Both the position numbers and the translations under genes were made by a program. A stretch of 64,000 nucleotides of DNA. It comes from Alphaproteobacteria bacterium. Its GTDB lineage: Bacteria; Pseudomonadota; Alphaproteobacteria; JAJFIK01. The notes beneath the pieces are model-generated. The model did not search any database. It had not been told where the DNA came from and was given only the letters and a program-made list of their open reading frames with translations. This document shows positions 5,730 through 63,614 of the stretch, piece after piece (positions within the stretch are counted from its first letter, which is position 1; every line of letters begins with the position of its first letter). The stretch covers positions 7,697 to 71,696 of the forward strand of contig JBHJGV010000015.1 of assembly GCA_050331455.1 (NCBI GenBank), given 5' to 3'.

Positions 5730-6915
5730 TCAGGCGGCGGCGCGCTGTTCCTCGCGGGCCGTGGCATAGGCCCAATCGAGCCAAGGCAGGAGAGCGACGA
5801 GATCCGAGGCCTCCACCGTGGCGCCGCACCAGATGCGCAGTCCCGATGGTGCGTCCCGGTAGCTCTCGATATCGAATGCCACCGCCTCACCTTCCAGCAA
5901 GGCGCCCAGACGCTTGACCAGGGCCTTGCGGCCATCGCCATCGAGATCCAGAAAGGCCGGATCGACGATCTTGAGGCAGACGGAGGTGTTGGACCGGGTG
6001 GCCGGATCATCCGCCAGGAAATCGATCCAGTCCCGCGACTCCACGAACCGTTCCATGACGGCCAGATTGGCATCGGCCCGGGCCCTCAGACCGGCGAGAC
6101 CGCCCACACCCTGGGACCAGCGCAGGGCATCGAGATAATCCTCGACACACAGAAGGGATGGCGTGTTGATCGTCTCGCCCTTGAAAATCCCTTCGATGAG
6201 TTTGCCGCCCTTGGTCAGACGGAAGATTTTCGGCAAGGGACGGTCAGGCGTGAAACGCTCCAGGCGCTCAACGGCGCGCGGGCCGAGGATCAACATCCCA
6301 TGGGCCGCTTCGCCGCCCAGAACTTTCTGCCAGGAATACGTGACCACATCGAGCTTTGGCCAGTCGAGATCCTGGGCGAAAGCCGCGGAGGTCGCATCGC
6401 AAATGGTCAGGCCTGCGCGATCGGCCTTGATCCAGTCCGCATTCGGAACCCGCACACCGGAGGTCGTTCCGTTCCAGGTGAAGACGACATCGCGATCCGT
6501 GTCGATGGACGCGAGATCTGGGAGCTGTCCGTAATCGGCCTCGATCACGCGGCAATCAGCCAATTTCAGCTGTTTGACCGCATCGGTGACCCATCCGGCC
6601 CCGAACGATTCCCAGGCAACCACATCGACACCCCGGGCGCCGAGCATGGTCCACATGGCCATTTCCACAGCCCCCGTATCGGAGGCGGGGACGATGCCAA
6701 TCCGATAATCATCCGGAATTTCAAGGATTTGTCGCGTGAGAGCGATCGCTTCGGCGAGCTTCGCCTTTCCGACCTTGGAGCGATGGGAGCGTCCCAAAGC
6801 AGCATCGGAGAGATCTTCGACAGTCCATCCGGGGCGCTTTGCGCAGGGACCGGAGGAGAAATGCGCCCGATCGGGACGCGTAACCGGCTTGGCCGGGATC
6901 GTCTGACTTTCCATA
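5730..6915 (-). CDS. serC: Phosphoserine aminotransferase (alphaproteobacterial or archaeal-type SerC)
   Basis: Strong similarity to rhizobial SerC ([17 protein letters not shown]..., [26 protein letters not shown]). The track ORF extends to 6983, but the conserved N-terminus starts at [10 protein letters not shown] (about 6913-6915). Confidence 0.9.
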
Positions 6916-7224
6916 AGTCTATTCCTTCCAGAATAGAAGCACTCCGTTGGGGGAGCGTGGCCCACGGAAGATATACGTCCCACACCGCTACGCCGTCAAG
7001 CAGCCAAGGGCGGACACCAAAACCAAAGCGGCCCGTGACGATGGTCACAGAGCCGTTAAGGAGGCGCAAAGCCCATGCCCTCCCGTCTCATTCCCGTCCC
7101 CTGCCCTGTCTTGGGCCCCAGTCCCTTCGGATAGGACTGTTCAAGGACGTCAGGGGGATGAAAATAGCAGCATGCCAAGCCACCCAGACCACCCGCCACC
7201 CCGCACGCACCGGAAGAGGCCGTC

Positions 7225-8373
7225 ATGACTGAACTTCTCGAATGCCAAAGACATCTCTTCGACCTGCCGCCCGGGGTCACCTATTTGAACTGCGCCTACA
7301 TGTCCCCGTCCCTGAAAACGGTCACCGCCGCGGGAGAACGCGGGGCACGGATCAAGGCCCATCCCTGGCGGATCGAGCCCAGGGATTTCTTCGCCGGCGC
7401 CGATGCGGCCCGAACCCTGTTCGCAGGTCTGATCGGAGCTGGTACGGACGATATCGCCATCGTGCCGTCGGCTAGTTACGGCATCGCATCGGCGGCAGCC
7501 AATCTTCCGCTGGCGGAGGGGCAGACCATCGTTCTGCTGGAGGAACAGTTTCCCTCCAATGTTTTCCAGTGGCGGCGCCGGGCCGACGAGGCCAGGGCAC
7601 GGATTGTCACCGTGGCCCGGCCGCATGCCGGTGACGGGTCGTGGAGCGAGGCAGTCCTCGCCGCCATCGGCGAGGATACGGCTGTCGTGGCCCTGCCCCA
7701 TTGCCACTGGACCGATGGCGCCCTGATGGACCTTGCCGCCATTTCCCGCCGGTGCCGGACGGTCGGGGCCGCCCTCGTCCTCGACCTGTCCCAGTCCCTC
7801 GGAGCCCTGCCGATCGGGATCGGTACGGTGGATGCGGACTTTCTGGTCACCCCCTGCTACAAATGGCTGCTTGGGCCCTACAGCCTGGGATTTCTCTATG
7901 TCGCACCGCGCCACCAGAACGGCATTCCCCTGGAGGAGACGTGGATCGGCCGTCAAGGGGCGGAGGATTTCGCCCGGCTGACCGCCTATACCGAGACCTG
8001 GGACACCGGCGCCCGCCGCTTCGACATGGGCGCCCGGGCCCATTTTCACCTCTTGCCCATGGCCTGCGCAGCGCTCGCGCAGATCGGCGACTGGCAGATC
8101 CCGCGCATCGCGGCAACCCTTGGCCGCATGACCGGCGAGATTGCCGACCGGGCCCAGGCCCTCGGCCTCGCCGTGCCGCCGGAGGCCGAACGCGCACCCC
8201 ATTTCATCGGCCTGCGCTTTCCCGGTGGCATGCCGGAGGGCTTGCTTGGCAGATTGAAAGAACGAGACATCTATGTCAGCGCCCGGGGGGACGCGCTCCG
8301 CGTCACGCCCCACCTTTATAACGGCACGGAGGATATCGACGTGTTGTTTTCCAGCCTCAAGGAGCTGATGTGA
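7225..8373 (+). CDS. Class V aminotransferase-fold PLP-dependent enzyme (function unassigned)
   Basis: Fold-type I/class V signatures (YLNCAYMSP near the N-terminus, PLP-lysine context TPCYKWLLGPYSLGFLY). Divergent from serC. Its stop overlaps the start of the downstream EamA gene. Confidence 0.75.
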   Translation: MTELLECQRHLFDLPPGVTYLNCAYMSPSLKTVTAAGERGARIKAHPWRIEPRDFFAGADAARTLFAGLIGAGTDDIAIVPSASYGIASAAANLPLAEGQTIVLLEEQFPSNVFQWRRRADEARARIVTVARPHAGDGSWSEAVLAAIGEDTAVVALPHCHWTDGALMDLAAISRRCRTVGAALVLDLSQSLGALPIGIGTVDADFLVTPCYKWLLGPYSLGFLYVAPRHQNGIPLEETWIGRQGAEDFARLTAYTETWDTGARRFDMGARAHFHLLPMACAALAQIGDWQIPRIAATLGRMTGEIADRAQALGLAVPPEAERAPHFIGLRFPGGMPEGLLGRLKERDIYVSARGDALRVTPHLYNGTEDIDVLFSSLKELM

Positions 8374-54494: not shown

Positions 54495-55028
54495 TCAGAC
54501 GTCGCCGTCCAACGAATGTTTCAAGCGCGAGAACGCAAGACGCAACCTGGACTTGACGGTACCGAGCGCAATACCCGTATGCTTGGCGATATCGCGGTGT
54601 GACAATCCGTTGAAAAAGGCGAGATACAAAAGATCGCGCTGTTCTTTCGGCAGGACCGTGATGGCCGCGTGCAACCGCTCTTGGCGCTGGCCTGCCAGCA
54701 CCGCATCGTCCGGCGCTGGTTCCGGATCCGGGACGAACATGGGGTCCTCGGGGTCGAACGCCGGATTACGCTCCCGCCGCAAAATGTCGATTCGCCGGTT
54801 GCGGGCGATTGTGAACAGCCAAGTGGAGGCCGACGCTTGGCGCCGGTCGAACTGTTCCGCCTTCCGCCAGACCGTCAGCATGACGTCCTGGACGATCTCT
54901 TCCGCCGACGCGCTGTCCGACCCGAGATTGATGAGGTAGCCCTTCAGGCGCGGCGCGAAATAGTCGAAGATCGAGGAGAAGGCAGCGCGGCTCCGCTCCC
55001 GCGCCACCGCTTCCAGCCAGTCGGCCAT
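54495..55028 (-). CDS. rpoE: ECF sigma factor RpoE (sigma-24; RpoE-ChrR singlet-oxygen stress pair)
   Basis: Region 2 (FDYFAPRLKGYL, DVMLTVWRKAEQFD) and region 4 (LSHRDIAKHTGIALGTVKSRLRLA). Start is uncertain: MADWLEAV is used here, and the track ORF extends to 55139. Confidence 0.85.
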   Translation of the reverse strand: MADWLEAVARERSRAAFSSIFDYFAPRLKGYLINLGSDSASAEEIVQDVMLTVWRKAEQFDRRQASASTWLFTIARNRRIDILRRERNPAFDPEDPMFVPDPEPAPDDAVLAGQRQERLHAAITVLPKEQRDLLYLAFFNGLSHRDIAKHTGIALGTVKSRLRLAFSRLKHSLDGDV

Positions 55029-55709
55029 CTGCTCCCGCGTAATTTTTTTCGTAATGTTGGATTCCGGTCGGCTCACGGTGTGATGCAACGTTATGGGGAG
55101 GGGCCAAAACCACCCCACTGTTACAGCACGGGCTTCCAATGTAAATCACACCCGAAAGGCCTGGGAGGGCCGCCTTGCAGGCCGCGACGCTTGGTGGACA
55201 CGCGCTACAGTAGCGCATGGGTAAGGGTGGCATATGGGACAGCGGGTGGGCTCTACCGATGCCTTGGGCCGTGTTGGGGCATGGTCGGACCGGCGCGCGC
55301 GCCAACCGGCGGATCACTGAGCCGCTCCGATACTGTTTTTTCGGCGTGAATATATAAAGCCGGCCCTTGGCCTTGCCCCCGCCGAGCGGTTCATCCACAT
55401 CTGGCATCATCAAGGGGTCACCGGCGCCGCTTGGTGGTCAGGAATGCAAAAGGGGGCTTGCACAGGATTCCGGGCAGCGCAACACGACCAGCCCGATCGC
55501 CGGCGGGGTCGTCCAGTGACCGTTTGCCCTTTTGTCGGCCCGAACCGCCGGGCATGATTTTCCGGTGGTTCGCCCGGCGAATCGATCGGCCTGGTTCAAT
55601 CGGACCGGTCCCACGCATCCGGCCCCGGTATGCGACCCGTATCGGACGATCGAACGCGGCGAGCCATGAGGACCTGCAACCCTCGACAGCCCAGGACGAA
55701 CAAGAGCCA

Positions 55710-56309
55710 ATGATGATTTCCAGCTTGACCATCCGACTTTTCCGTCCCCTGGACCCCCGCGGCATCCCCGCTGCCGCCCTCGTATTGGGGGTCCTGTGTG
55801 CCCTCGCCACGCTGGTGCCGCCGACCCCGGCCCGGGCCCAGGATGCCCCCAAGGTTCTCGGCACCTACAAAGCGTGGACCGCTTATCAGTCCCAAGAGAA
55901 CGGCGAGACCTTGTGTTTCATCGTGTCCGACCCCACCGAAAAGCGCCTGTCGCGCACCGGACGCAATCGGGGCGATGTGCATTTCCTGCTGTCCCATTGG
56001 CCGAGCAAGGAGATTTTCGGCCAACCCAGCGTGATCATCGGCTACCCGTTCGCGCGCAACAGTGAACCGTCGGTGCGCATCGGGTCAGACCAGTTCGAGA
56101 TGGTTCTCGATCCGGAGAACAAGGACATTTACGAGGAACGCGCCTGGGCGCCGGACGCGGACACTGAAGAGCGGCTGATCTCGGCCATGCGCCGCGGGAC
56201 GACCATGGTCGTCACGGGCCGCTCGTCCAGCGGGACGATTTCCACGGACACGTATTCGCTGCTGGGTTTCACCGCGGCGCTCAAGCGAATCGACGAGCAA
56301 TGCCGATAA
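55710..56309 (+). CDS. Invasion-associated locus B (IalB) family periplasmic protein
   Basis: Signal peptide followed by the IalB-type domain. Start at MMISSL. Confidence 0.65.
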
Positions 56310-57556
56310 CGCCGTCGTCCCCGGGTGCCGGGCCGGTTCAGCCCGGGACCGACGGCGGGGGCGGCGTCACGCCGCTCACCTTCCGAGGACGCATCGATCC
56401 CGCGCCGATCGACCCACGCGCTGGCGCGCCTGCCGCGCCCGGAAAACGCAATCTCATTGGCCTGGGCCGTGAGGCCCTGATGGCGGCCTTGGGCGATCTT
56501 GATATCCCGGACACGCAGCGGGCCATGAGGGTCCGCCAAGTCTGGAACTGGCTTTACGTGCGCGGCGCCGCGGACTTCGAGCGCATGTCCAACCTGTCAA
56601 AGGGACTGCGCCAGGCGTTGGACGACCGGTTCGAAATCAAGCGCCCCGAAGTCGTCGATGCCCAGATCTCCCAGGACGGCACCCGCAAATGGCTTTTGAG
56701 AAGCGCCCCCGGCGTGGAGGTCGAGACCGTCTTTATCCCCGATGATGACCGCGGAACCTTGTGCGTCTCGAGCCAGGTGGGATGCACCCTGACCTGCCGT
56801 TTCTGCCACACCGGCACCCAGCCTCTTGTGCGCAATCTGACGTCCACGGAAATTCTCGGACAGGTGCTCGTGGCTCGTGATGCCTTGGGGGAGTGGCCGG
56901 ATGAAGGGGGCAAACCGGCGACCGAACGGGCCATGACGAATATCGTCATGATGGGAATGGGCGAGCCCCTCTATAATTTCGATGCGGTCAAGGAATCCCT
57001 GCTGATCGCTTCGGACAATGAGGGAATTTCGCTTTCCAAGCGGCGGATCACCCTGTCCACGGCCGGTGTGGTGCCCCTGATCCCCCGAGCCGGCGCTGAG
57101 ATCGGCGTGATGCTGGCCATCTCGCTCCATGCGGTGCGTGACGACCTGCGCAACGAGATCGTGCCGCTGAACAAGAAATATCCCATTGCCGAGCTTCTCG
57201 ACGCGTGCCGCGCCTATCCGGGCCTGTCCAATGCCAAGCGCATCACGTTCGAGTATGTGATGCTGCGCGACATGAATGATTCGGATGCGGATGCGCGGGA
57301 TCTGGTGCGCTTGATCGCCGGCATCCCGGCCAAGATCAATCTCATTCCGTTCAACCCCTGGCCCGGATCCCCCTATGAATGCTCCGACTGGGAACGGATC
57401 GAACGGTTTGCCGATATCGTGAACCGGGCGGGCTATGCGAGCCCGGTGCGCACGCCGCGCGGGCGGGACATTCTCGCCGCCTGTGGACAGCTCAAATCGG
57501 AAAGCCGGAAACTGCGCGCTTCTGAAAGACGGGCTCGCGAGGGCCATGGCGCCTGA
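56300..57556 (+). CDS. rlmN: 23S rRNA/tRNA adenine-C2 methyltransferase RlmN (radical SAM)
   Basis: Radical-SAM motif CxxxCxxC ([12 protein letters not shown]), conserved GMGEPL and the C-terminal Cys. Confidence 0.93.
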
Positions 57557-58031
57557 CGTCTCCCTTCCGGCTGGCCTCGCGCTCGAGCCGGCCCGGAGCG
57601 CGGACTTTGAGGCCCTGTTCACCCTGATCGATGAGAGCTTCGCGCCGCTTCTTGGGCCCGCCGGCCAGTGGGACAGGGCCCGTGAACGTCGGATGTTTCG
57701 TCGCAGCTTCACGCCTGGACGAGATCTTGTGCTGCGCGCCTGCGGGCAGGATGGATCGGTCGCGGGGCTCTGGAGCGTCGCCGGGATCCCCGGCGGGCGC
57801 GTCCTGCTTTACGCGGTTTTGGCTCCGCAATGGCGCAATCGCGGCATCGGCTCCCGGTTGCTGGCGGCGCTGACGGGCGAGGCCGACGCGAATGGCATCC
57901 CTCTAGAGTTGACTGTGCATCGACTCAATCGCGCCAGTGCACTCTACGAACGCGTTGGCTTTCGTGCTGTTTTGGAGACAGACACAAAACTGAGAATGCG
58001 TTATTCTCCCAGTTTGAGACAGTGGGCTTAA
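57546..58031 (+). CDS. GNAT-family N-acetyltransferase
   Basis: Acetyl-CoA-binding motif [14 protein letters not shown] overlaps the rlmN stop. Confidence 0.7.
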
Positions 58032-58048
58032 CGGCGGTTTTGTGCGCA

Positions 58049-59545
58049 ATGCAGTGGTTCGACTCGCCATATGGGTCGCTGGGAGTCGTTCCCCGGCACC
58101 AGACCCAGGCCATTGCGCCTCTCGGAGCATATCCGCAGGGGCCCTATCCCCCTGCGCCACACCCGCAAATGGCCTACCAAATGGCTGTGGCCGGCGGGGA
58201 CCACTCGCTGTTTTACGGCCCCAATGGTCAGCCCTATGTGGCGCAGGCCTATGCCGGGTCCCCGCACCAAACGGACTACCCGCCCCACACTTACACGGCA
58301 GGTCCGCCCCATGCGGTCGGTCAGGGCCCTGTCGCGGAGCCCAACTACAACCCCTATGCGTTCTATCCGGATGGGAGCCAAGGCACCCAGCCCCAACCCC
58401 AACTGATGCCGATGCCGATGCCGATGCCGACGCAACAGCATCCGGCCCATTGGGGCCAGGCCTATTCCGATCCGGACTATGCGGGCGGTGGAGGCCATCA
58501 CGCCGGCACCATGCACCAGGGTTACGCCCAACATCCTTCATCGGCCCAGAACGCACCCTATCGGGGCGATCGGCAGGGATTCGGCCAGGAACAGATGGTC
58601 CAGAACCCCTATGGTCAGGTCGTCTACGCGGCGGATGGTGCCCATCACCAGGGCGTTGCCCAAGGCGGTCAGCCCTATCGCCAGGACCACGATCCCCATA
58701 GTGCGGGCAACGGCTACGGTTCTTACGCCCAAGGGCCCTACCCGCCGGGACAGCAGCCAACCTATCCCCCTGGCCAATATCCGAGCGGCCAATATCCCCC
58801 GCAGCCGGGTCAGTATCCCCCGCAAGGCGGCTACCCTCCAGGCTATGGCCATCCGGGCTATCCGCCCCAACATCCTGGTCCGGGCGGCTATCCGCCAATG
58901 CCGCCCGGAGGTGGTATGCAGTATCCGGACCAGAATGGATTCCTGCGCTGGATTTTTGCCTATTTCTGGGGCTGCGCCGGAGCTCTGCCCATCGTGATGA
59001 TCGGCTTTTTCCTATCCTTCAGCGCGATGGACCGGTTCAACAGCTTTGCCTCGGCCGTCATGATCATGATGATGCTCTCGCCGGTGTTCCTGGCGGCGAC
59101 CATGGCCGCCGGAGCCGTACCGACCATCGCCGCCCATTTCACGCTCCAGGGGATCCGGCGCATGGACGGCGCGAGCTACAGCGTCGCCGGCCTCATAGCC
59201 TGGGGTATTTTCGGGTTTTTCGGGTCGGTCTTCGCGTGGCTGTCGGTCAATGGCGCCCGCAGTTCGCGTTACAGCTCCGGTGACAGCGATGTCAGCATGC
59301 TTGGCCTGACGGTCACGGCCGGCCTGTCCGGGGCATTGGTGCTGTTCATCGTTTGGCTCATCCGGGTTCGGCCCATGATGTATGGCGGGATGTTGCCCGG
59401 ACGCACCCCGCCGGGACCACCGCCCGGCCCCCCTCCGGGACCGCCGCCCGCCCCCCCGCCGGAGCCGGCGCAACCCTCGTCGAACAAGAAGCCGGATCAG
59501 CCGAAACGCCCCGGTCCTTACGAAAGCCAGTATCCGTTCCTTTGA
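58049..59545 (+). CDS. Pro/Gln/Tyr/Gly-rich low-complexity protein with four C-terminal TM helices and a PPGP-repeat tail
   Basis: About 300 aa of compositionally biased sequence (YPPGQYPSGQYPPQPGQYPPQGGYPPGYGHPGYPP, PMPMPMP), then four hydrophobic helices and PPGPPPGPPPGPPPAPPP. GC3-rich and continuous, so it is likely a real gene. Confidence 0.6.
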   Translation: MQWFDSPYGSLGVVPRHQTQAIAPLGAYPQGPYPPAPHPQMAYQMAVAGGDHSLFYGPNGQPYVAQAYAGSPHQTDYPPHTYTAGPPHAVGQGPVAEPNYNPYAFYPDGSQGTQPQPQLMPMPMPMPTQQHPAHWGQAYSDPDYAGGGGHHAGTMHQGYAQHPSSAQNAPYRGDRQGFGQEQMVQNPYGQVVYAADGAHHQGVAQGGQPYRQDHDPHSAGNGYGSYAQGPYPPGQQPTYPPGQYPSGQYPPQPGQYPPQGGYPPGYGHPGYPPQHPGPGGYPPMPPGGGMQYPDQNGFLRWIFAYFWGCAGALPIVMIGFFLSFSAMDRFNSFASAVMIMMMLSPVFLAATMAAGAVPTIAAHFTLQGIRRMDGASYSVAGLIAWGIFGFFGSVFAWLSVNGARSSRYSSGDSDVSMLGLTVTAGLSGALVLFIVWLIRVRPMMYGGMLPGRTPPGPPPGPPPGPPPAPPPEPAQPSSNKKPDQPKRPGPYESQYPFL

Positions 59546-60907: not shown

Positions 60908-62254
60908 TCAGACCGCCCCGCCTTTGAGCGTCTTACCGTCGACGGCCGTGCCTTGGACTGTCTGGGGCATGGTCTCCGGCGCCGGATGATCCGCGCCCAG
61001 ATCTCTTGCCGGGCTGACCCACAGGAAATACAGGAAGCTGATCAAATGGCGCAGGGGGAACCAACCCGCTGCGATCATGATGGCCATCACGGGCGAGACC
61101 TGGGGCAGCAAAGCGAAAAGCCCGGCCACGGCCAGCGCGGCCCAGATATTCGCCTTGAGCACATGCATTGTGTCCGCATGGCGGTTCAGGATCACGGCAT
61201 GGGTGTAGATGCTGTTGGCGAGCGCGAGCCCGTAACTCGGCAGGATCACCATGGCCACGCCGAAGGCCTCCCAGGGCATCGGCGTCAGCTTCAAGGGGAA
61301 CACCGCCACATAGAGCGCCGCGGCAATACCGAGGCCGGACATGGTGCCGAAGGCAATCACCAGCATCAGGCTGCGCACCGTGGGCAGCTTCTCCACAAAG
61401 CGGGAGAAGAAAATATAATAACCCGGCTTGATCAGATTCAGGATCAACCGGCCCGTTGAAAAGCCCAGGGAATAAAGGCCCACAAAGGCCGGCCCGGTGA
61501 TCTGAGCTAGGATCAGCTTGTCCACATGCAGCAGGGAATGGGGCACAAGCTGACTGAGGCTCGCCATGACCGCATCGCGCAGATCGTGGAGCCGGAACTG
61601 GCGTATCGCCGTTCCGAAATTGGCAACAAAGCCGAACTCCCGGATCACCCAGAAAAAGGCGACGAAGCCAACCAGGGACGACAGGCCCACAAAAATATAG
61701 GTGGCAAATTCGATGTCCCCCGTGGTGCGGATCGCGAGGACGAAGGCGGCAAAGCCGCCGCCATAGGCCGCCAGATTGATCCAAAAACTGGTCCGGAAAC
61801 GCTTGAGCGCCTGGTTGACGGACACAAACAGGTTTCCCGGAAATTTCAGGGCCGCGAAAACACCGAGCAGGCCGAAATAGGAAATGGCCGACGGGTCCCG
61901 GAAAACGGCGAAATGGATGAGGACGAAGACCAGAGTACCCGCCAGAGTGATCACGACCCGGGCCGTGAACAGGGCGATCATCGCCAGGGTGTCCCGTGCG
62001 ACGACCTTCTGCACGTAAACGGTTCCCATTTCGAACAGGGACAGAACGCCGAACATGCCCAGCACGGCGGTCATGATTCGGAAAACCCCCGCGTCCTCCG
62101 CCGTGTTGAAGGCGAAGAGATAGAGGATCACGACATAATTCACGATGCCCGGCAGCGCATTGCCCATCATGGAGTAAGGCGCGCTTTTGAAGACGAAGCG
62201 AAGCATGCCGCGGCGTTTTCCAGACCGGTCGGCCGGGGAGGTCAAAGCTGTCAC
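60908..62254 (-). CDS. Polysaccharide biosynthesis / oligosaccharide flippase (Wzx, MOP superfamily) membrane protein
   Basis: About 448 aa with 12-14 TM helices and flippase-like topology. GC is lower (about 59-60%). Confidence 0.7.
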   Translation of the reverse strand: MTALTSPADRSGKRRGMLRFVFKSAPYSMMGNALPGIVNYVVILYLFAFNTAEDAGVFRIMTAVLGMFGVLSLFEMGTVYVQKVVARDTLAMIALFTARVVITLAGTLVFVLIHFAVFRDPSAISYFGLLGVFAALKFPGNLFVSVNQALKRFRTSFWINLAAYGGGFAAFVLAIRTTGDIEFATYIFVGLSSLVGFVAFFWVIREFGFVANFGTAIRQFRLHDLRDAVMASLSQLVPHSLLHVDKLILAQITGPAFVGLYSLGFSTGRLILNLIKPGYYIFFSRFVEKLPTVRSLMLVIAFGTMSGLGIAAALYVAVFPLKLTPMPWEAFGVAMVILPSYGLALANSIYTHAVILNRHADTMHVLKANIWAALAVAGLFALLPQVSPVMAIMIAAGWFPLRHLISFLYFLWVSPARDLGADHPAPETMPQTVQGTAVDGKTLKGGAV

Positions 62255-62741: not shown

Positions 62742-63614
62742 ATGATGACGTCTGCGCCAGGAAAGACCGTCGCCGACCCCCGGGTCGTCTACATCCTCGG
62801 CAGCGGCCATTGCGGTTCAACCCTGCTTCATTTGCTGATGAACGCCCATCCGGAGCTGTGCGGGACCGGCGAGTTGACCTTCCTGACCAAGATGAAAAAG
62901 CGTGCAATGGAAGAAGGGCCGGACGTCAAGGAACTCGAAGCGGTCCGATCCGAATTCTGGCAGTCGGTGTTCGAACGGTTCCAGGCCGAGAGCGACGTTG
63001 CCCTCGAGGAACTCAGCCTGCGCGAGTTCATTAACAGTCCTATGGCGGATTATATACGGGGCAGCGGACGGTATCCCGCCTGGCGCGCGATGCATCTCGC
63101 CCTTTTCCGGGCCCTCGGAGAGGTGTCCGGCAGGGAATGGGTGATCGATTCCTCCAAGACGGCGGGACGCTGTCTCCAGCTTCACGGTGTGCTGGGCGAC
63201 CGGATGCGGGTCATTCACCTCGTGCGGGATCGGCGGGGCGTGTTCAGTTCCTATTTGAAAAAATACGGTGTGGGCTATGGACTGCGCAGTTCCATCCTGG
63301 TGCCGATCTATTGCTATCTCGCCCAGACCATCCTGCGCAAAGTGACGCTCCGCGTGCGCTATGAAGATCTGGTGCGCAATCCCGAAGCGACGCTGCGCAC
63401 GATCTGCCGCTTCCTTGGCATCGACTATAGCGCCCAGATGCTGGATTTCCGGTCGGTGCCCGATTACAGCGTCAACGGCAACCGAATGCGCTTTTCCTCC
63501 AGCAGCGAAATCGTCCTTGACGAGAAATGGCGCCGCACGCTTTCCAAGCGGAACAAGGCGATCTTCACGGTGTTCGGCGGCTGGCTGAACTGGCTGGAGG
63601 GCTATACCTCCTGA
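62742..63614 (+). CDS. Sulfotransferase-family protein
   Basis: 5'-PSB-like P-loop YILGSGHCGSTLL and 3'-PB-like IHLVRDRRGV. Good RBS AAGGAAAG. GC about 58-59%. Confidence 0.75.
   Translation: MMTSAPGKTVADPRVVYILGSGHCGSTLLHLLMNAHPELCGTGELTFLTKMKKRAMEEGPDVKELEAVRSEFWQSVFERFQAESDVALEELSLREFINSPMADYIRGSGRYPAWRAMHLALFRALGEVSGREWVIDSSKTAGRCLQLHGVLGDRMRVIHLVRDRRGVFSSYLKKYGVGYGLRSSILVPIYCYLAQTILRKVTLRVRYEDLVRNPEATLRTICRFLGIDYSAQMLDFRSVPDYSVNGNRMRFSSSSEIVLDEKWRRTLSKRNKAIFTVFGGWLNWLEGYTS

Follow-up and report, generated by a model that had tools for sequence, protein, structure and literature searches.

What does an open reading frame (ORF) encode when much of its product is low-complexity sequence, and is it a gene at all? 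The question is posed by positions 58049–59545 of a stretch of 64,000 nucleotides (nt), referred to below as the window, which covers positions 7,697 to 71,696 of the forward strand of contig JBHJGV010000015.1 in assembly GCA_050331455.1 of an Alphaproteobacteria bacterium (GTDB lineage Bacteria; Pseudomonadota; Alphaproteobacteria; JAJFIK01). The ORF predicts a protein of 498 amino acids (aa) with a long N-terminal low-complexity arm (N-arm), four transmembrane (TM) helices and a proline-rich C-terminal arm (C-arm). It is a real protein-coding gene, and comparison with its relatives places it in a small, fast-evolving, previously undescribed and unnamed family. It is tentatively proposed here that the protein is an inner-membrane tether whose disordered arms reach into the cytoplasm, with a docking peptide at the C-terminal end.

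The reading frame and its family

At this locus the length of an ORF is by itself no proof of a gene, because the DNA of the window is 65% GC and antisense ORFs of 331 and 399 aa overlap positions 58049–59545. These long spurious frames, together with antisense calls in the homologous region of a related locus (L001), are what speaks for a chance open frame in GC-rich DNA, an explanation which four further observations refute. First, the GC content of the 498-aa frame at the three codon positions (0.68/0.54/0.73 overall, 0.54/0.49/0.82 in the TM part) resembles that of the neighbouring genes rlmN (0.65/0.50/0.77) and argG (0.65/0.45/0.81), whereas the antisense ORFs show the opposite pattern, with a third-position GC content (GC3) of 0.54–0.61. 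Second, substitutions relative to L001, the orthologue locus in the metagenome-assembled genome (MAG) GCA_964449455.1, fall mainly at third positions. In the TM domain 69 codons are identical, 36 differ synonymously and 54 non-synonymously, with 39, 25 and 74 differences at codon positions 1, 2 and 3; over codons 1–36 the corresponding figures are 18, 10 and 8, with 6, 2 and 16 differences by position. Third, the near-identical genome GCA_964406365.1 (L003) differs from the window over 8362 shared nt by a total of two mismatches and one 21-nt insertion, and the insertion leaves the reading frame intact. Fourth, orthologues bearing the conserved motifs stand at syntenic positions in eight other sequence types. 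Codon-position GC, third-position substitution bias, the in-frame indel and the conservation of the frame across genomes thus identify 58049–59545 as a protein-coding gene and not a GC artefact. A first-pass annotation of the window had named loss of frame conservation among relatives as the sign of such an artefact; the frame is conserved both in the L001 orthologue and in L003.

The start of translation can also be placed. An in-frame TTG at 58040 is an alternative which would add 3 aa, and the start called in L003 is the same ATG as that of the window gene (58049). Since aa 1–36 and aa 51–66 are conserved relative to L001 mainly through synonymous changes, translation starts at or very near 58049. 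A scan for promoters and terminators around the gene gave no signal above chance.

The orthologue in L001 (6929–8645) illustrates an annotation trap. It is interrupted by a run of N within an (AHHAQ)n repeat; the public call is a 214-aa fragment which starts MQYPDQN, and two antisense ORFs of 143 and 73 aa are called over the true N-arm. Because the run of N lies inside the repeat, which broke the assembly, the truncated call and the antisense ORFs are to be read as annotation artefacts.

When 1.84 billion representative proteins were searched exhaustively (hmmsearch) with a profile of the TM domain, nine matches were obtained, of which eight are genuine: P0001–P0007 (E-values from 4.5e-96 to 3e-13) and P0009 (8e-4). 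The remaining match, P0008, was discarded as a spurious repeat protein. With the window protein, the family therefore comprises nine sequence types. A word-indexed homology search found just one to three of the relatives, and the exhaustive search was needed for the others. All named records of relatives are from uncultured Alphaproteobacteria; several members come from runs SRR6462989-95, and the record title of the L001/L004 MAG is tagged SRP128890. A cluster look-up gave a name for no family member. A DNA pattern built from the conserved motifs matches 12 of the 15 fetched loci, while neither this pattern nor peptide patterns matched anything in the JGI metagenome collection, and a scan of genome contigs returned solely the MAG already found. 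Given this scarcity of relatives and of metagenome matches, the family is rare and clade-restricted. Identity to the window is 34–65% in the TM domain, compared with 83–93% for ArgG, 78–84% for RlmN and 45–69% for the neighbouring GNAT acetyltransferase.

The protein had been described as functionally unannotated, and this description stands. At E<=1 neither the full protein nor its TM region matched a Pfam family, and with all nine members at E<=10 there were scattered single-member matches only (best, Claudin_3, E=0.055). No NCBIfam model matched the full protein or the TM region, the phage and defence-system models of PHROGs and PADLOC gave no match for the family, and PDB sequences searched with the family profile gave none at E<=10. 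The RDD (PF06271), TM2 (PF05154) and DUF families, against which the first-pass annotation had suggested comparing the TM region, resemble the window protein in having small multi-TM cores, often with Pro/Gly/Tyr/Gln-rich cytoplasmic extensions. The comparison was made and came back empty: no Pfam or NCBIfam model of these families was matched by any member, even at E<=10. A likeness to FtsX, found when the TM model was compared with the PDB by Foldseek, was rejected as a generic four-helix resemblance (best E 0.95, TM-score, that is, template modelling score, 0.47), and no match to BFVD fell below E=1.6.

The bundle, the arms and the terminal peptide

The family is defined by a TM domain of about 147 aa which carries R-W-x-x-A-Y-x-x-G-C in TM1, P-T at the end of TM2 and S-Y-x-x-x-G-x-x-x-W in TM3, all of them present in the window protein. 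Four hydrophobic segments are found at about residues 301–328, 330–364, 377–400 and 414–444, and AlphaFold, run on the nine-sequence alignment, predicts a four-helix bundle with a predicted local distance difference test score (pLDDT) of 82.8 and a predicted template modelling score (pTM) of 0.75. In a full-length model the bundle reaches a pLDDT of 85–96 and the tail 44–75. The most conserved face of the family is that of TM1 (R300 W301 .. A304 Y305 .. G308 C309 .. A312. P314 .... G319). Conservation follows an i, i+4 periodicity along one face of TM1 (R300 W301, A304 Y305, G308 C309, A312) and of TM3 (S376 Y377, G381, W385, G389), P358-T359 is conserved at the end of TM2, and G308, C309, G319, P358, Y377, G381, W385 and G428 are invariant in the family alignment.

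The topology of the bundle is suggested by its positive charges. Summed over the nine members, Lys and Arg number 10 before TM1, 18 in loop 2–3 and 30 after TM4, compared with 5 in loop 1–2 and 9 in loop 3–4. Because of these counts, the positive-inside rule predicts an N-in/C-in topology, in which the two arms would be cytoplasmic, as would that end of the bundle which carries the conserved P-T / S-Y residues; a low-complexity domain on either terminus would then still lie in the same compartment. The first-pass annotation had also considered that such a protein might be an envelope spacer. Its arms would then lie outside the cytoplasmic membrane and would bridge or space the envelope. The sole support for this is the general likeness of Pro-rich tracts to linkers that span the periplasm, of which TonB provides an example. 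The charge counts place the N-terminus, loop 2–3 and the C-terminus in the cytoplasm, and the window protein has no N-terminal hydrophobic signal segment which could export a domain of 294 aa, so that a periplasmic role is very improbable.

The N-arm is strongly biased in composition, as had been noted. Residues 1–289 consist of 19.4% Pro, 16.6% Gly, 13.1% Gln, 10.4% Tyr, 9.3% Ala and 6.2% His, with only 4 Lys or Arg and 12 Asp or Glu. Pro, Gly, Gln and Tyr together account for 59.5% of these residues, as against 19.7% in four neighbouring proteins and no more than 28% in every other plausible ORF of the window. The enrichment in Tyr, Gln and His is not a by-product of GC pressure, because their codons contain A or T. 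The 31 Tyr residues of the N-arm have a median spacing of 7, and the peptides YPPGQYPSGQYPPQPGQYPPQ, PMPMPMP and HQGYAQHP are all found in the 498-aa protein. In the full-length AlphaFold model residues 1–292 have a pLDDT of 30–48 and no secondary structure, and the N-arm is thus predicted to be disordered, in keeping with the earlier description. The further label ‘prion-like’ fits less well: with 19% Pro and little Asn, the composition is not of the Q/N amyloid type.

Parts of the N-arm are repetitive at the level of the DNA. Tandem Repeats Finder reports (GATGCC)x4.3 at 58405–58430, with a period of 6 and a 100% match, which corresponds to four copies of ATGCCG; codon-level repeats had thus been correctly recognised, with the copy number of this one put at three. 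The 21-nt unit which is present in two copies in the window is present in three in L003, where the extra GCCGGGTCAGTATCCCCCGCA adds PQPGQYP, showing that the length of the low-complexity domain changes by in-frame slippage of repeat units. In L001 a different repeat, (AHHAQ)n, occupies the same place in the N-arm, and is long enough to break the assembly. The N-arm also holds two islands, aa 1–36 and aa 51–66, which on the codon comparison with L001 are under purifying selection. Of the second (DHSLFYGPNGxPYVAQ), L001 shares 15 of the 16 residues, the third-position changes being synonymous, and the motif F-[DE]-S-x-YG of the window N-terminus is also found at the N-terminus of P0002.

Across the family the arms vary greatly. 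Measured as far as the FLRW anchor motif, the window protein has an N-arm of 297 aa; those of P0003 and P0002 reach 200 and 73 aa, respectively, and the L001 orthologue has one as well, with the assembly gap inside its repeat. The N-arm is absent in P0004, P0005, P0006 and P0009 and amounts to 15 aa in P0007. The C-arms of P0005 and P0007 are 157 and 170 aa long and have a P/A/G/Y/Q/H flavour like that of the N-arm in the window. The low-complexity domain is therefore N-terminal in the window protein and three relatives and C-terminal in two, while the other three have short arms; the large N-terminal domain is the least conserved part of the protein and not a family feature.

These findings bear on the idea that function resides wholly in the four-helix bundle, for example as a small channel, a transporter subunit or a membrane regulator, and that the arms are largely neutral products of slippage, tolerated as they are disordered and cytoplasmic. 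Such an account, which is somewhat unlikely, would explain why four members dispense with the N-arm and a fifth keeps 15 aa of it, why copy number is polymorphic between near-identical genomes and why L001 carries a different repeat; the invariant Gly, Cys, Pro, Tyr and Trp residues within the helices also agree with it. It does not readily explain why so unusual a composition (Y/P/Q/G/H) should turn up at either terminus, and in every case on the side predicted to be cytoplasmic, why the two N-arm islands are under purifying selection, or why the extreme C-terminal tip is kept across tails which cannot be aligned.

Apart from the bundle, it is the extreme C-terminal tip which the family conserves. 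The tail of the window protein (aa 449–498) is 44% Pro and contains PPGPPPGPPPGPPPAPPP, with a 24-nt period repeated 2.4 times at 59406–59462 (Tandem Repeats Finder); the four TM helices and PPGP tail of the first-pass annotation are borne out by the hydrophobic segments, the modelled helices and this composition. Ahead of the tip, the Pro-rich or charged tails of the family are 49–170 aa long and otherwise unalignable. The tip itself follows the consensus [A/P]-[Y/F]-[D/E/Q]-x-x-[Y/V/T/M]-P-F-[L/F/I/S]-COOH, and eight of the nine members end in P-F-[L/F/I/S] (YPFL, YPFF, VPFL, TPFF, VPFS, TPFL, MPFL, VPFI). An aromatic residue and an acidic residue or Gln are often found 5–8 positions upstream (GPYESQYPFL, QAYDPQVPFL, MPYDQQVPFS, QAYQDTPTPFL). 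In the full-length model residues 491–498 have a pLDDT below 50, and there is no confident docking of the tip on the protein's own bundle.

Several known peptide motifs were compared with the tip. The beta-clamp-binding pentapeptide (Q-L-[S/D]-L-F or Q-x-x-Phi-Phi type) has a conserved Gln and hydrophobic residues at positions 2, 4 and 5. The fit to it is partial: the window protein, P0002 and P0004 (three of nine members) have Q-[Y/V]-P-F-[L/S], and P0001, P0003, P0005, P0006 and P0007 have N, D, P or H in place of the Gln. Mimicry of the FtsZ C-terminal peptide (I-P-x-F-L) was dropped as the register is off by one residue, and mimicry of the tip of the single-stranded DNA-binding protein (SSB) was dropped as the window tip is not acidic and Phe is not its last residue.

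A further explanation of the tip is that it serves as a degron or processing signal, the protein being, in place of a docking adaptor, a proteolytically regulated membrane factor recognised by a cytoplasmic AAA+ protease or by FtsH. FtsH and ClpXP recognise accessible non-polar C-terminal tails, and such a signal would look like the tip, which is non-polar, conserved and placed at the very end of a flexible tail. With its length of about 10 residues, two aromatic anchors and a conserved Pro, however, the motif is more specific than known C-terminal degrons, and no protease gene is linked to the family in any of its contexts; this explanation is judged to be improbable.

Proposed role and comparison with known systems

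The general design of the family, a membrane anchor with disordered arms and a terminal motif, is a familiar one. In the tentative reading put forward here, the bundle would anchor the protein in the inner membrane and may bind something at the cytoplasmic face. The Pro-rich, polyproline-like tail would hold out the short linear motif at the C-terminus, which could then dock a soluble partner. The Tyr-studded arm might provide multivalent weak contacts or act as an entropic spacer, and selection on it would concern composition and compartment, and not sequence or position.

The only candidate partner suggested by the data is the co-encoded GNAT acetyltransferase. A GNAT gene lies directly upstream of the family gene, on the same strand, in all nine contexts. 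The two genes are 17 nt apart in the window; across the family they overlap by as much as 14 nt or are separated by up to about 160 nt. The usual block around the family gene (X) is IalB-like / rlmN / GNAT / X / argG, and on longer contigs it runs through asparaginase II, SpoU methylase, an opposite-strand ChrR-like cupin with an extracytoplasmic function (ECF) sigma factor, IalB-like, RlmN, GNAT, X and ArgG; the window carries the same larger block. L005 and L015 keep the GNAT–X pair but have another gene downstream of it (an uncharacterised protein and rpmI, respectively). The window GNAT is generic, its best NCBIfam match being rimI at 25.6 bits against a cut-off of 86.4, and a search for synteny in sister clades by way of the GNAT neighbour led no further than the same clade. 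In so narrow a clade, the pairing argues only weakly for a functional link.

Several points weigh against a tether of this kind. The linkage to GNAT may mean no more than that an operon has been inherited vertically in a narrow clade; among the genomes the identity of ArgG is 83–93%, and the whole 10-kb block is syntenic. The P-F tip is lacking in P0009, the most distant member, and the N-arm is dispensable in half of the family and, mutating by slippage, may be largely neutral. The topology is derived from a single line of argument, the positive-inside rule. Finally, the invariant Gly, Cys, Pro and Trp residues within the membrane could equally point to a transport, channel or cofactor role of the bundle.

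A polar organiser had been suggested in the first-pass annotation. By this account the protein would be a condensate scaffold like PopZ, SpmX or PodJ, with an arm which self-associates and concentrates clients at the pole or at a patch of membrane. The composition of the arm is sticker-spacer-like, with its 31 Tyr residues set in a P/G/Q matrix, and the arm is predicted to be disordered; membrane-anchored disordered scaffolds, such as SpmX, are known in the Alphaproteobacteria (PMC5347347, PMC8849385). SpmX is anchored in the membrane and combines TM segments with a proline-rich intermediate domain (PMC5347347); it has also been reported to form condensates (PMC8849385). The likeness to SpmX and PopZ lies in the proline-rich disordered regions of these alphaproteobacterial proteins. 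SpmX, however, has a lysozyme-like domain at the N-terminus, then its Pro-rich region and, at the C-terminus, two TM segments, whereas the window protein has no muramidase domain in the Pfam scan and four TM helices. PopZ is a soluble, acidic protein with a C-terminal oligomerisation domain (DUF2497) and an N-terminal client-binding helix, in contrast to the four TM helices of the window protein and the 12 acidic residues among the 289 of its N-arm. No PopZ- or SpmX-type domain is matched in Pfam or NCBIfam, and the arm is missing from half of the family. The suggestion of a polar organiser is thus not upheld, and a scaffold of this type is regarded as quite unlikely.

A more speculative extension of the tether, and one with a small chance of being right, draws by analogy on synaptophysin and on SSB. 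The protein might be a bacterial counterpart of the principle seen in their tails, whereby the Tyr-studded P/Q/G arm would condense in two dimensions along the membrane, on its cytoplasmic side, and the conserved C-terminal Y-[D/E]-x-x-Phi-P-F-Phi would recruit a specific soluble client into this layer, perhaps the co-encoded GNAT. An arm on either terminus would serve such a condensate, as only composition and compartment would matter, and slippage of the repeats would tune the valency of the arm between strains.

The likeness to bacterial SSB consists of a low-complexity P/G/Q linker followed by a conserved terminal peptide with an (I/V)-P-F core. In the SSB peptide DDDIPF the terminal Phe is the last residue, whereas the window tip ESQYPFL has one acidic residue and a Leu after the Phe. 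The window protein also differs from SSB in being an integral membrane protein with no OB-fold domain in the Pfam scan. The C-terminal peptide of SSB docks many partners and its linker supports condensation (PMC7584906). Synaptophysin and synaptogyrin, eukaryotic tetraspan proteins of vesicle membranes to which the likeness is one of analogy only, have four TM helices, cytosolic termini and a disordered tail with Tyr-containing Pro/Gly/Gln repeats, and the synaptophysin tail engages in multivalent interaction with synapsin condensates (PMC11260120). That tail is acidic, whereas that of the window protein is near-neutral and its repeat arm is N-terminal. There was no Pfam match to MARVEL (PF01284), and no synaptophysin or MARVEL chain was among the 38 PDB matches listed by Foldseek, all of which had E>0.9.

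If the proposed tether is correct, the family would be a natural experiment in what a low-complexity domain needs, in which composition is kept and held in the cytoplasm, on one and the same membrane anchor, while the domain moves between termini and its length shifts by slippage. Work on bacterial disordered regions tethered to membranes, and on short docking motifs at protein ends, would benefit from it. In practice the protein joins the many uncharacterised membrane proteins of uncultured organisms that are confined to one clade, and no known pathway is linked to it. A modest follow-up is merited by the low-complexity domain, with its independence of position, and by the conserved terminal peptide.

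Feature coordinates and neighbouring genes

Features of the family gene and its upstream neighbour (positions in the window; residues are those of the 498-aa protein).
Feature	Residues	Position	Strand	Basis or remark
GNAT acetyltransferase gene, directly upstream, 17-nt spacer		57546..58031	+	Pfam Acetyltransf_1/7/10
Coding sequence, 498 aa + stop	1–498	58049..59545	+	ATG to TGA; GC by codon position 0.68/0.54/0.73
Low-complexity N-arm, P/G/Q/Y/A/H-rich	1–294	58049..58930	+	Composition; AlphaFold pLDDT
Conserved N-terminal peptide MQWFDSPYGSLG..PRHQT.AIA.LG..PQGP	1–36	58049..58156	+	Comparison with L001
Second conserved N-arm island DHSLFYGPNGQPYVAQ	51–66	58199..58246	+	Comparison with L001
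Hexanucleotide tandem repeat encoding MPMPMPMP		58405..58430	+	Tandem Repeats Finder
21-nt unit x2, anchored by TATCCCCCGCA, encoding (Y)PPQPGQ heptads		58793..58834	+	Copy number polymorphic
TM helix 1	295–324	58931..59020	+	AlphaFold, hydrophobicity, alignment
TM helix 2	333–369	59045..59155	+	G355..P358-T359 at its predicted cytoplasmic end
TM helix 3	374–407	59168..59269	+	S376 Y377 ... G381 ... W385 ... G389
TM helix 4	417–446	59297..59386	+	G428 invariant
C-arm, predicted cytoplasmic	447–498	59387..59542	+	PPGP tract, basic K/R-Pro patch (NKKPDQPKRPG), tip
Conserved C-terminal motif PGPYESQYPFL-COOH		59510..59542	+	Family comparison

At the 3' end of the GNAT gene, positions 57970–58005 of the window, GTTTTGGAGACAGACACAAAACTGAGAATGCG encodes the C-terminal motif of the GNAT protein. 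Its codons end in A or T (ACA, AAA, AGA; also TTG) despite a genome GC3 of about 0.7–0.8, and synonymous sites in the stretch hardly vary among six loci with GNAT proteins that are just 45–69% identical. It may be a nucleotide-level signal, for example an internal promoter or an element for translational coupling of the downstream gene. A regulatory RNA was considered at this position and dropped, as two small hairpins or inverted repeats are not kept as structures in the other loci.

Elsewhere in the block, the longest ORF of rlmN begins with about 55 residues which are Pro/Gly/Ala-rich (56300–56470, plus strand) and overlaps the IalB-like gene by 10 nt. The called lengths of RlmN among relatives range from 373 to 428 aa, and the true start of rlmN may lie further downstream. 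An ECF sigma factor gene (54495–55139, minus strand) is divergent from the IalB–rlmN–GNAT–X block (the region of note extends upstream to 53746), and in relatives the ECF sigma gene has a ChrR-like Cupin_7 anti-sigma gene as its partner. A second uncharacterised membrane protein, a multi-TM protein of 448 aa with no Pfam match, is encoded near the family gene at 60908–62254 on the minus strand, flanked by argG and a sulfotransferase gene (62742–63614); genes of similar size (439 aa in L001, 432 aa in L003), likewise with no Pfam match, stand at the same position. The only Rfam match in the window to pass the gathering threshold is a serC leader (RF00517, 49.3 bits) at 6914–6967 on the minus strand, upstream of the ORF at 5730–6983.

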